Source of the DNA: a virus
Taxonomy: Duplodnaviria > Caudoviricetes
Reading direction: 5' to 3' (one strand)
Length of the DNA stretch: 64,000 nt
IMG/VR virus record: IMGVR_UViG_3300021399_000115
Span: 1 to 64,000 of that record
The position numbers and the translations under genes were made by a program. The notes beneath the pieces were generated by a model. It did not search any database. It was not told where the DNA came from and worked only from the letters and a program-made list of their open reading frames with translations. Positions 7,720 through 64,000 of this stretch are shown here, piece by piece (within the stretch, counting starts at the first letter, position 1; every line of letters starts with the position of its first letter).

Positions 7720-7998
7720 TCTCACTCCTTTCAAAAGTAACCCAAACATGGTTAATAACTCTCCCCGAAGGGAGGTAAAATACCTTCGCCAATGTTATAG
7801 GAGGTTTGTATGTCAGCAACACTGCCCCTACCCATCAGGGCTGTTTAATCACTGACCTCAGAGCCGCAGACTAGGTATAACATCCACGGGTGACTATATA
7901 TTCTCCCATAACGTAGTTCTCGAAGAACTTAGGCTAGTCAACAATGGCTTTTTCAAGCCCCCACTTCAAGGCGTTAGCCTAAGTGGTGGGTTATTGAC
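7720..7998 (-). ncRNA. omegaRNA (HEARO-type) scaffold
   Basis: Typical 5' GTCAATAACCC, GTTGACTAGCCTAAG, CTACGTT and AACATTGGCGAAGG segments directly upstream of iscB. Confidence 0.85.
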
Positions 7999-62149: not shown

Positions 62150-62221
62150 CAGGGAGTATAGGTGCTGCCCCTATGTACCCAGATTCAAGGTCTGGTTCAC
62201 TAGCTGTTGTGATAACCCCCC
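62150..62221 (-). tRNA. tRNA-Gln(TTG), atypical
   Basis: Cloverleaf GGGGGGT/ACTCCCT, TCAC/GTGA, CCAGA-CCTTGAA-TCTGG, ATAGG-GGCAGCA-CCTAT. Confidence 0.7.
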
Positions 62222-62648
62222 CTAAATTTCTCAAACAAGGCCGTGTTCCACGAAATTAATTTGCGCATCGTGCGGGGTTGATTAAGCCAAAAACCCGTCT
62301 TATGGCACCTTGCTTAAGATTGCATGTGGCGAGAAAATACCCTCGCCACAAAACCTCACTTTAAGTTATTTCATTTCTGTTTCTGTTAAGTAATATTGCA
62401 ATGCTCGTCTTTCCGAGCCGTCGGGGTTTTGTAACGAAAGTTACGGGATAAAAAGCTGTTTGATCAATCACATAGTTACAAGTACGTACTTCCCAGTCTT
62501 TCCCAGGTGTCACCAGTTTTTGACAGCTATGTCCTTCGCATATTATTCTGTCACGTGCATCAGACATGTGTGGAATATGTCATTTTGCCTTTCTGCTTTC
62601 GCTTATCTTATCCACAATCAGATAAGCCGGAATCCTGGACAACCATGA

Positions 62649-62721
62649 TATCCGCAGGCCGATTCGAACAACCACTTCCCGTCGGCGGACGGGACGTACT
62701 CACCAATTATACGATACGGAT
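62649..62721 (-). tRNA. tRNA-like gene, anticodon not assignable
   Basis: ATCCGTA/TGCGGAT acceptor, D-loop AATTGGTGA, T-loop TTCGAAT; anticodon arm TCCCGTC-CGCC-GACGGGA. Confidence 0.7.
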
Positions 62722-62786
62722 AACCAATTACACATGTGCTTTCACTATTTCGGACAGCTTGTACTTCACCGACCTACTTTAGCTAG

Positions 62787-62879
62787 TGGGAACGGCAAGA
62801 TTTGAACTTGCATCTCTTTTGCGCTAAAGTGTTTTACCATAAGGATTTATTTTTTGGCACCTTATTAAACTACGTTCCC
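62787..62879 (-). tRNA. tRNA-like gene with D-loop insertion and shortened anticodon arm
   Basis: GGGAACG/CGTTCCC acceptor, GTTT/AAAC D-stem with inserted ATAAGG..CCTTAT hairpin, GCAAG-TTCAAAT-CTTGC T-arm. Confidence 0.7.
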
Positions 62880-62883
62880 TTAT

Positions 62884-63250
62884 TATTGCGGCTATATCAG
62901 CCTCGTACAATTCGCTGGGTCAAATAAGCGATACCCATAAACTTTGATCGAGGATTTTATCGAAAATTAATAAATGAATTCCCTAAGCCCTACATAAAAA
63001 GAATTCTAAATTCTAAATCGCCACATCACCAGTGGCATCCACTAAACAATAATCAATGATAACTGAGCGCTTAAGCCAATTTACATTTGATTTCTCATCC
63101 CATCAGCATTGCAATATTGATGCTGCTCATATGAGAAAACACTGTATAATATCATATCGCTTCATCTCGATATTATGATGTTTTAAATGGAGCCGGGATA
63201 ACCCTCCCGGCGAGGGGCTTAAGTTTGCGAATTTCGATATAGTCGCAATA
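62884..63250 (-). ncRNA. Putative 367-nt structured ncRNA with heptad repeats
   Basis: 15-bp closing stem TATTGCGACTATATC/GATATAGCCGCAATA, nested AATTCGC/GCGAATT and AAACTT/AAGTTT pairings, several hairpins. Confidence 0.7.
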
Positions 63251-63263
63251 GATTATTTAATAA

Positions 63264-63897
63264 TTAAAAATCAATTTCTATTGTAGTCAGAGCATTCGAC
63301 ACATTCAGCTTCGTATCAACCTCTGCTTCAAACGCGTCAATTCTGGACTCCAACTCAGCAATTTTCTTCTCAATATCGAGCGGATCGACAATGGCAAATT
63401 CCCTTTGCTTTCTATACGGCGCTGTAAAGGCTTCTATGTCAACTTTGTCAATTTTTTGCTTATTGTCTCCGGAAAGCTGTGTTTCGATCAATCTGTCGCA
63501 CTGAGCGTCCACTTTTGCGTTCTCACGAGCAACGGTGGAAACAGCCGAATCAAACTGCTCTTTCATCGCATAGAGGAATCTTTTGTCATACTCAATCGAA
63601 CTCTTCTTTTCTATAGCAGCTGCGACAGTCATCGTTACTCCGCCGATTTCTACCTTAGTAATTGCGTTAGAATTGACAATTGCACTCTTGAGAGCATCTC
63701 GGTTATCAATCATAGCCGTGATAGAATCAAACGAGGACTGTGCATCATTCTCGTAAGCTTTCCTTTTTCTTGTGACCGATTAAATCCGAATTCTTCTTGG
63801 CTGCTCCGACAAATTCGGCACGACCGATTGCCTTATAAATTTTGTCGTCATAGAGTTTCAGTTCTTTCAATGCTTCTGTTACTGTAATTTTTCTCAT
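63264..63897 (-). CDS. Coiled-coil protein (resembles DIP1984/DUF6847-like family); one-base frameshift near 63760
   Basis: MRKITVTEALKELKLYDDKI... joins ...KEAYENDAQSSFDSITAMIDNRDALKSAIVNSNA... if one A is removed from AAGGAAAGC; C-terminal EVDTKLNVSNALTTIEIDF. Family name is from recall and unverified. Confidence 0.6.
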
Positions 63898-63943
63898 AGT
63901 TAATTCTCCTTTGTTTAATAAATGAATTTACATGATTCCTTAG

Positions 63944-64000
63944 CTGAAGCGGTACGATTCGAACATACATCTTCTCGATTGGCGCCGAGACGTTTTACCA
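63944..64000 (-). tRNA. Partial tRNA/tRNA-like gene (5' end outside the window), irregular anticodon loop
   Basis: TGGTAAAAC G TCTCG-GCGCCAAT-CGAGA AGAT GTATG-TTCGAAT-CGTAC CGCTTCA. Confidence 0.65.

Follow-up and report, generated by a model that had tools for sequence, protein, structure and literature searches.

The DNA examined here (the window) comprises 64,000 nucleotides (nt), the opening part of a 132-kb gut phage record, IMG/VR IMGVR_UViG_3300021399_000115. Nearly all long open reading frames (ORFs) of this record lie on the minus strand. Towards the end of the window this strand carries, in 5' to 3' order, the gene of a 210-residue helical protein (63264..63897), 13 nt, an ORF-free stretch of 367 nt (62884..63250), 4 nt, a tRNA-like element and a tRNA. 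Our subject is the 367-nt stretch, which we describe as a structured non-coding RNA delimited by its fold, by covariation among relatives and by a single match to a model of its 3' domain. All features of the element given below are on the minus strand, and RNA position i corresponds to window position 63251 - i. We consider it nearly certain that a real conserved RNA is specified on this strand. The interpretation that we favour, at a rough probability of 0.55, is that 63250-62884 (-) encodes a stable non-coding RNA that has a protein partner and belongs to a large phage family.

Folding and conserved architecture of the RNA

The two ends of the element are joined by a closing stem, P1. Its 5' arm (RNA 1-15; 63236..63250) starts 13 nt past the stop codon of the gene and pairs with the 3' arm (RNA 353-367; 62884..62898). 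In the window, 14 of the 15 positions are paired and one is an A-C mismatch, the place of which is taken by a normal pair in the 92.6%-identical copy L002. The minus strand folds at -108.1 kcal/mol (z = -3.27), and none of 100 shuffles did equally well. Because the plus strand likewise folds well (z = -5.10), the strand is not given by folding energy alone.

Within the closed element, hairpins are formed by GCCGGGA/TCCCGGC (RNA positions 40-46 and 53-59), by CAGCATCA...TGCTG (RNA positions 126-147) and by GCCAC/GTGGC (RNA positions 215-219 and 227-231), and a further stem by TTTCTCAT/ATGAGAAA (RNA positions 113-120 and 153-160). A preliminary description of the locus, made from its letters without database searches, had listed these stems and hairpins with 7-nt repeats between them, and all are present where it had placed them, the closing stem with its 14 of 15 positions paired. 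Two hairpins, at about RNA 75-105 and at RNA 113-160 with 126-147 as an inner stem (63091..63176), vary in length and sequence among relatives. The GCCAC/GTGGC hairpin (RNA 215-231; 63020..63036), which interrupts the repeat tract, is shared by the window and the related locus L011 only; 3 of 20 aligned rows have an insert at this site, the third of them, in L037, being different from the hairpin of the other two.

To describe what the family has in common, we delimited 35 elements and aligned 20 of them as set A3, which consists of the window, L011, L037 and a group at about 50% protein identity, and 33 as set A5, leaving out two near duplicates. The sequences of A5 come from T5-like, Vibrio, Pseudomonas, Bacillus, Lactococcus, Clostridioides and gut phages. 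Pairing was compared with controls in which the 3' partners were slid by 1-3 columns and with 500 shuffles; the sets contain related sequences, so the shuffle counts overstate significance and the slid controls are the fairer. Taken together, helices P1, P2, P3, P4 and P5 are 95.7% paired in the 20 sequences, as against 33.7-43.0% in the slid controls. Changes on both sides of a pair occur in 23 of 35 pairs and amount to 119 cells, compared with 13-20 when slid, and no shuffle out of 500 reached the observed values.

The contributions of the individual helices differ. P1 has 13 core pairs, 98.8% paired in the 20 sequences, of which ten are changed on both sides. P2 joins RNA 18-24 (63227..63233) to RNA 336-342 (62909-62915); its seven pairs are 99.3% paired in the same set, five of them with both-side changes. 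P5, between RNA 25-30 (AAACUU; 63221..63226) and RNA 307-312 (62939-62944), is the weakest helix, with six pairs that are 89.2% paired, mostly conserved in sequence and changed on both sides in a single pair. P4 is a small hairpin (RNA 315-318 with 331-334) paired in 68-87% of cells across the sets and in 87.2% in the 20 sequences. P3 brings together RNA 298-302 and 346-350; its five pairs are 97.0% paired in A3 and 98.8% paired in the more diverse A5, where four of the five are changed on both sides and the two middle ones show all four Watson-Crick types. Since its 5' arm lies inside and its 3' arm outside the span of P2 and P5, P3 forms a pseudoknot. The UCGAUAAAAUCC motif, P3, the 3' arm of P5, P4 and the 3' arm of P2 make up a conserved 3' domain (62901..62964), on which we based a model, R1 (92 positions, built on 33 rows). 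In its own 132-kb record R1 finds exactly one match, 62885-62976 (-), at 77.2 bits.

A second pseudoknot, of the H type, lies near the 5' end (63192..63216), where S1 (RNA 35-38/46-49) crosses S2 (RNA 40-45/54-59). By column counts in alignment A4, which had been re-gapped by script, S1 is paired in 81 of 100 cells against 24-57% in slid controls, its four core pairs showing CG, GC and TA types, and S2 in 129 of 140 cells against 35-45%, with 55 cells changed on both sides against 5-12. When this pseudoknot was sought in single sequences, typically 3-50 of 100 mononucleotide shuffles did equally well. The conserved architecture contains these two pseudoknots in place of the long-range helix CUUAAGCCC/GGGCUUAGG of the energy fold, which was paired in 56.3% of cells in 20 relatives and which we rejected as a family feature.

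The strand follows from two observations. P1 alone contains 17 U-G and 5 G-U cells in the 20 sequences, and these would be A-C mismatches on the other strand; furthermore, all 51 of 51 R1 matches fall on the strand of the gene. The RNA is thus read in the gene direction, and the structured RNA that had been proposed to follow the gene proves to be a real one on the gene strand. There is also a hint of transcription. Metatranscriptome contigs from two RNA libraries of two studies, one of 244 nt at 62993-63236 and one of 294 nt at 62938-63229, lie wholly inside the element and attest its presence in these libraries, and DNA contigs of two other runs span the whole stretch.

None of the catalogued RNA families that were searched accounts for the element. 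Rfam 15, applied at gathering score to the whole window, returned a HEARO RNA (7775-7998) and one tRNA only, and at E <= 10 on 62200-64000 just the tRNA and rows at chance level. A gathering-score scan of 20 related loci yielded tRNAs only, and the element stayed unmatched in 17 loci at E <= 0.5. The ROOL and GOLLD models did not match it in the window or the locus scans, nor was RAGATH-27 found in the Rfam scans of the window and in 37 locus scans.

The heptad tract

Between its hairpins and up to the 3' domain, the RNA is largely single-stranded and carries UYA units spaced 7 nt apart. The main array consists of five units starting at RNA 177, 185, 192, 199 and 206 (RNA 177-212; 63039..63074), in register with the invariant T columns 312, 319, 326 and 334 of A3 and with column 341, which is nearly invariant. 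After the inserted hairpin come two perfect units (RNA 235 and 242, covering 235-248) and then looser ones (RNA 265, 274 and 281), together occupying 62964..63016 as far as the 3' domain and in register with the invariant T columns 370, 377, 427 and 450. The window therefore counts seven units in two arrays and up to about 11 if the looser ones are included. Every heptad named in the preliminary description is there, and the period it had claimed is supported by the excess of T[TC]A at lag 7: six occurrences in the window against 0.7+-0.8 in dinucleotide shuffles, none of 300 being as high. Among the 35 elements, 25 have a lag-7 count that at most 2 of 300 shuffles reached, and the longest strict lag-7 chain has a median of six units (range 0-9).

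The A3 consensus of the heptad starts with an invariant T, followed by C or T, by A in 19-20 of 20 rows and by a fourth position that is mostly A or G; the remaining two to three positions carry 0.04-0.7 bits. We also compared near relatives on a fine scale, using L002, L011 and contigs of other runs. In seven close pairs, a small sample, the UYA positions changed least (5/140), compared with 13/168 between units, 23/428 in stems and 244/2566 over all columns; by this count the free heptad positions are not hypervariable. At the Y positions the near relatives show C<->T changes only, and the window and L011 differ at none of 24 free positions. The UYA motif itself is constrained.

The upstream gene, its protein and the spread of the pair

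The gene upstream of the RNA (63264..63897, minus strand, its stop codon ending at 63264) belongs to phrog_1491 and is of the T5.085 type. In the window it is split into an ORF of 50 residues (63897-63745) and one of 149 (63713-63264), both of which match phrog_1491 (E 1.7e-07 at profile positions 2-49 and E 4.7e-47 at positions 65-210). The L002 copy is a single intact ORF of 210 residues (L002:2818-3450) and is 99% identical over the C-terminal 149. DNA contigs of other runs are one base shorter, X3 from a second sample at 63758 and X5 from an independent study at 63756. The one-base frameshift that had been suspected near 63760 is therefore real as a difference between records: the window carries one extra base relative to three relatives (L002, X3 and X5) in the run-rich stretch 63756-63768, by either a sequencing error or a genuine mutation.

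No family in Pfam, NCBIfam or PADLOC lies above cut-off for the phage protein (zero families in PADLOC), the Pfam scans of the protein contain no nuclease family, and the L002 protein has no NCBIfam family. Its AlphaFold2 (AF2) model (predicted local distance difference test score, pLDDT, 90.9; predicted template-modelling score 0.70) comprises five helices, assigned by DSSP to residues 6-26, 45-79, 91-142, 151-165 and 175-203, and four short strands. The top match in both fold searches is PDB entry 3KDQ, the protein DIP1984 of Corynebacterium diphtheriae. With VIA it scores Z 10.0 at a root-mean-square deviation of 7.6 with 151 of 152 residues aligned, and is the sole chain with Z >= 8 among 48,161; with Foldseek it has a probability of 1.00 and E 0.016. 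For helical proteins a Z under about 13 can reflect a common arrangement, and the fold call therefore rests on rank, coverage and a shared motif. Indeed, a weak DIP1984 profile match (E 0.083) aligns the conserved SNAxT...MTxAxA stretch, and the nearest named Atlas cluster has PF20935 on 16% of its members. The phage protein thus shares the 3KDQ fold and this stretch with DIP1984/DUF6847 but is about 55 residues longer, and it falls below the curated cut-offs of PF20935 and NF038048, two models to each of which 1 of 22 members of set A1 gave a weak match (E 0.042 and 0.017).

Modelled as a homodimer, the protein scores 0.75 (0.73-0.75 in three runs), the best of three controls scoring 0.00; of 30 proteins solved as one-chain pairs 20 attained the mark of 0.75, as did 1 of 23 known as single chains. 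In the symmetric dimer the partner has a pLDDT of 89 or more, and 99% or more of the contacts recur between runs. 3KDQ, a related entry, contains one chain in several copies, and this likeness may partly explain the result. On these models the protein probably self-associates as a dimer. Of the helical protein that the preliminary description proposed to oligomerise on the RNA with one heptad per subunit, the helical fold is upheld by AF2 and self-association by the homodimer model, in which the copies form a pair and no filament or ring. One family member, P0108, has 474 residues, about twice the normal length, with two matched stretches, and looks like a tandem duplication or a two-copy fusion.

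The RNA is too divergent for DNA searches, and blastn of a 1,171-base stretch against phage records returned no match; relatives were reached via the protein. With the L002 protein, tblastn matched 747 phage records, 717 of them over at least 80% of its length, and the family extends over 93 matched protein clusters and 3,751 representative clusters at 50% identity. We compared loci from 5 + 27 viral contigs, 11 metagenome and 10 bacterial-genome sequences and 12 annotated phage records. The 11 metagenome loci contributed no further close relative of the window. Directly behind the gene, 11 of the 12 annotated records have the closing stem, a repeat tract and the conserved AAAUCC...GGCUG 3' part, and none of the 12, among them a T5 relative and PVP-SE1, annotates an RNA feature at the place of the element. 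The hosts of annotated carriers are Escherichia (the T5 relative), Salmonella (PVP-SE1, whose record labels the gene a T5.085 homologue), Erwinia, Pseudomonas, Vibrio, Aeromonas, Bacillus, Lactococcus, Clostridioides and Clostridium, and the carrier phages are mostly virulent.

Of 55 loci searched with R1, 50 have a match at E <= 0.001 on the downstream side of the gene; T5-like, Clostridioides, Bacillus and Vibrio phages are among them. This figure speaks for consistency more than for independent discovery. Homologs thus carry a similar downstream RNA with covarying helices and heptads in register, which is what the preliminary description had asked to be checked. Seven of ten loci from Lachnospiraceae/Clostridiales genomes match at the same threshold, from which we infer that the phage of the window belongs with hosts of this group. 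Among the loci in which R1 finds no match, L041 and L046 end at a contig edge, L069 is cut, L070 is a 29-residue fragment, and L024 and L064 hold a remnant of the RNA, described below; in L047, P1 and P3 are visible by eye and a tRNA lies within the element. In the Bacillus phage KLEB27-3 the RNA stands 1.6 kb further on, recognisable by P1, P3 and heptads seen by eye and by a weak R1 match (E 0.0089) in the locus search at E <= 1; the genome search with R1 at E <= 0.001 missed it.

The tRNA-like element that follows P1 by 4 nt (62787..62879, minus strand) is 93 nt long, scores 45.8 bits against the Rfam tRNA model and is not called by ARAGORN. It has perfect acceptor and T arms and an aberrant middle with a 26-nt insert at the D-loop position, and is conserved in L002 and L011. 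Like the window, 5 of the 34 other elements have a tRNA or tRNA-like element that starts 2-6 nt past P1; the number rises to 14 for distances of up to 150 nt and to 27 when the whole fetched locus on both sides is counted. The next element of the window, at 62647..62722 (-), is called by ARAGORN as a tRNA of undefined identity. Its homologous site in L002 is a normal tRNA-Gly(tcc); mean column identity is 88% and the difference lies mainly in the anticodon arm, which reflects either a changed specificity or another indel in the window.

Other observations concern the tRNA surroundings of the family. A weak tRNA-like match (22.2 bits, E 0.12), cut by the window edge, lies at 63944-64000 (-), about 50 nt upstream of the gene start, and ARAGORN calls a tRNA-Met further upstream, outside the window (L001:2879-2954). 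In three relatives the element itself is interrupted, between its 5' pseudoknot and its repeat tract, by a tRNA or tRNA-like unit (L036:2203-2266 by Rfam; L047 about 690-765 and L041 about 1320-1395 by sequence); normal tRNA processing would cut such RNAs into two pieces joined by P1 and P2. Orphan phage RNAs in similar neighbourhoods were seen at L040:2072-2155 and L009:3907-4014, one of them a RAGATH-33 RNA (58.5 bits, cut by the locus end) and the other a drum RNA (47.7 bits against a gathering score of 43). Elsewhere in the window, the HEARO RNA at 7775-7998 (-) is full-length (RF02033; 154.6 bits against a gathering score of 83) and has directly downstream a 425-residue ORF (7749-6472, minus strand); the two look like an IscB/HNH-type mobile unit in the phage.

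Known systems, competing explanations and meaning

In the TRAP/trp leader and HutP/hut leader systems of Bacillus, short triplets at regular intervals in single-stranded RNA are recognised by an oligomeric protein; in the case of HutP they are UAG triplets with 4 nt between them, so that the period is 7 nt. The sites concerned are short and cis-acting and lie in leaders, where they control termination. Our element resembles them in its evenly spaced triplets, UYA recurring at lag 7, and four of the seven array units in the window read UUAG. It differs in that the family consensus is UYA(R) instead of a strict UAG and in being large, knotted and free-standing. Scans of Pfam at E <= 1 gave no HutP or TRAP family for the window ORFs, for the L002 protein or, among the first 25 families listed, for the 22 members of A1, with the proviso that HMMER filters drop most matches above an E of about 0.1. 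The analogy with TRAP drawn in the preliminary description therefore holds for the periodic triplets, as a resemblance, and not for membership of the TRAP or HutP families.

ROOL and GOLLD are larger RNAs, often found beside tRNA genes, that lack both a heptad tract and an association with one particular protein gene. The element is like them in size, ornateness and tRNA neighbourhood only; it is smaller, has the tract, goes with one protein gene and is unmatched by their Rfam models. They are reported to be large ornate phage RNAs that form RNA-only assemblies (PMC12286853). The element also invites comparison with the RNAs of type III toxin-antitoxin systems. The repeats of those RNAs measure tens of nucleotides and lie upstream of an endoribonuclease gene. 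The 7-nt units described here lie downstream of the gene of a helical protein with no match to a nuclease or defence family. In ToxIN and TenpIN a protein and a repeat-bearing pseudoknotted RNA are reported to form a particle (PMC12283969, PMC13682666).

In layout, the nearest described system is VIPR. It is presented as a phage-encoded pair of a Vipr protein and a vrRNA (bioRxiv 10.64898/2026.04.26.720920); the vrRNA has 9-16 five-nt YNNGG units with hypervariable NN, measures about 100 nt and often occurs in several copies per locus, and Vipr is a RAMP/RRM protein with an RRM core, G-loop and thumb. Both systems combine a small protein with an RNA whose tandem short units have fixed and free positions and give way to a conserved 3' part containing a pseudoknot. 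In contrast to the published features of VIPR, our units are 7 nt long (UYA plus 4) and belong to a single RNA that measures about 290-430 nt, has a closing stem and contains two pseudoknots, their free positions lack hypervariability (13/168 vs 244/2566), and the phage protein is helical and nearest to 3KDQ, with no RAMP chain among the fold matches listed. The period-7 cluster reported for Evo-PIN (10.64898/2026.10.21.760802) comes from Patescibacteriota, lacks a partner protein and has a second array in reverse complement; we regard it as a different thing. The literature searched contained no description of a module of this gene and this RNA, although the supplementary tables of VIPR and Evo-PIN, which were not covered, could list it.

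The protein-partnered RNA that we favour might work as follows. The RNA would be made within the transcription unit of the phage tRNA genes, and a cut by RNase P at the tRNA-like element 4 nt after P1 would free its 3' end. It would then serve as the dedicated partner of the DIP1984-like helical protein, probably a dimer, encoded 13 nt upstream. Protein dimers would hold the UYA heptads so that several copies are aligned on one RNA, and the two knotted ends would fix the tract and protect the RNA. We believe, with modest confidence, that the RNA is a functional partner of the neighbouring protein; that the heptads are the binding sites of this protein is a more tentative proposal, which we place a little short of even odds.

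A number of points speak against this interpretation. Adjacency of gene and RNA is in itself weak evidence for partnership, and the symmetric dimer model carries no information on RNA. Many records name the protein a 'tail fiber protein', the label of phrog_1491. Among the 55 loci examined with R1, 33 are training rows of the model and many others near duplicates. The L024/L064 lineage keeps a full-length gene beside an RNA reduced to the central hairpin and 4-5 heptads, followed by a terminator-like hairpin; this remnant (L064:3130-3300) is without closing stem, both pseudoknots and 3' domain, so that the protein can occur where the RNA is incomplete. In KLEB27-3 three small ORFs lie between the gene and the RNA. 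The UYA periodicity is weak in 10 of 35 elements, for example in T5_ev219 (38 of 300 shuffles as high), phiCD211 (164 of 300) and Deep Blue, whose units have a somewhat different motif. The counts for S1 and S2 depend on the re-gapping of A4, in which ten columns were right-justified where the MAFFT gap was inconsistent. Finally, a promoter scan stayed at chance level (3 found, 4.0+-2.0 expected), and the RNA-library contigs speak for presence only, not for strand, ends or level, as DNA can occur in such libraries.

Some of these points would suit an RNA that acts without the neighbouring protein, as an RNA-only particle or as a UYA decoy for a host RNA-binding factor, with shared expression explaining the gene order. 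The L024/L064 lineage and KLEB27-3 do loosen the link between gene and RNA, and ROOL and GOLLD, large ornate RNAs of phages beside tRNA genes, are reported to form RNA-only assemblies (PMC12286853). We nevertheless find this explanation unlikely: gene and RNA share one strand and are nearly always adjacent, and the motif and architecture recur in phages of Gram-negative and Gram-positive hosts, a spread more easily reconciled with a co-encoded partner than with a factor specific to the host. The position of the RNA, starting 13 nt past a stop codon, abutted by tRNAs and without a convincing promoter of its own, could also indicate a cis-acting 3' untranslated element of the protein mRNA or the tRNA operon, such as a stabiliser, a processing platform or an insulator. 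Yet a conserved tract and two covarying pseudoknots in about 300-430 nt go far beyond the need of known stabilisers, the RNA of KLEB27-3 is 1.6 kb away from the gene, and the RNA-library contigs cover the element and not the coding sequence, a weak hint given that missing cover is no finding in itself. A cis-acting role is thus decidedly improbable.

A type III-like toxin-antitoxin pair, in which the repeat RNA would keep a harmful helical protein inactive, agrees with the combination of a protein with a repeat-bearing pseudoknotted RNA and with the heptads that the L024/L064 remnant retains beside the gene. It is very improbable for an RNA that lies downstream of its gene instead of upstream, has 7-nt units, occurs mostly in virulent phages and accompanies a protein with no PADLOC model and no Pfam nuclease family. 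The tract of fixed and free units before a conserved pseudoknotted 3' part, as in the vrRNAs, raises the thought of a VIPR-like guide code, the protein clamping UYA while the bases between read a DNA or RNA target with gaps. We give this little credence, as the free positions are not hypervariable and are identical between the window and L011, there is one RNA per genome here, and the protein is helical and nearest to 3KDQ with no RAMP among the fold matches listed. A RAMP-independent second class of repeat-coded RNA-guided particle, in which DIP1984-like dimers on UYA would expose a 7-nt code directed at nucleic acid of the host or of competing phages, is just as remote a prospect. Least credible of all is a DNA-level element such as an origin, iterons or a packaging site; short and inverted repeats in an ORF-free gap and the good folding of the plus strand would agree with it, but it is contradicted by the strand-specific U-G pairs, the two covarying pseudoknots, a 7-nt spacing that misfits the DNA helical repeat and the presence of the sequence in RNA-library contigs.

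Our analysis shows that well-studied phages carry a conserved, unannotated RNA of about 300-430 nt that contains two pseudoknots. At the least, a large RNA family is added to the catalogues, and the annotation 'empty spacer' and perhaps that of 'tail fiber protein' are corrected. If the protein and the RNA form a particle, large phages would possess a new ribonucleoprotein whose recognition of RNA follows a simple periodic rule. Furthermore, the pair may give a first functional lead for the DIP1984/DUF6847 proteins.

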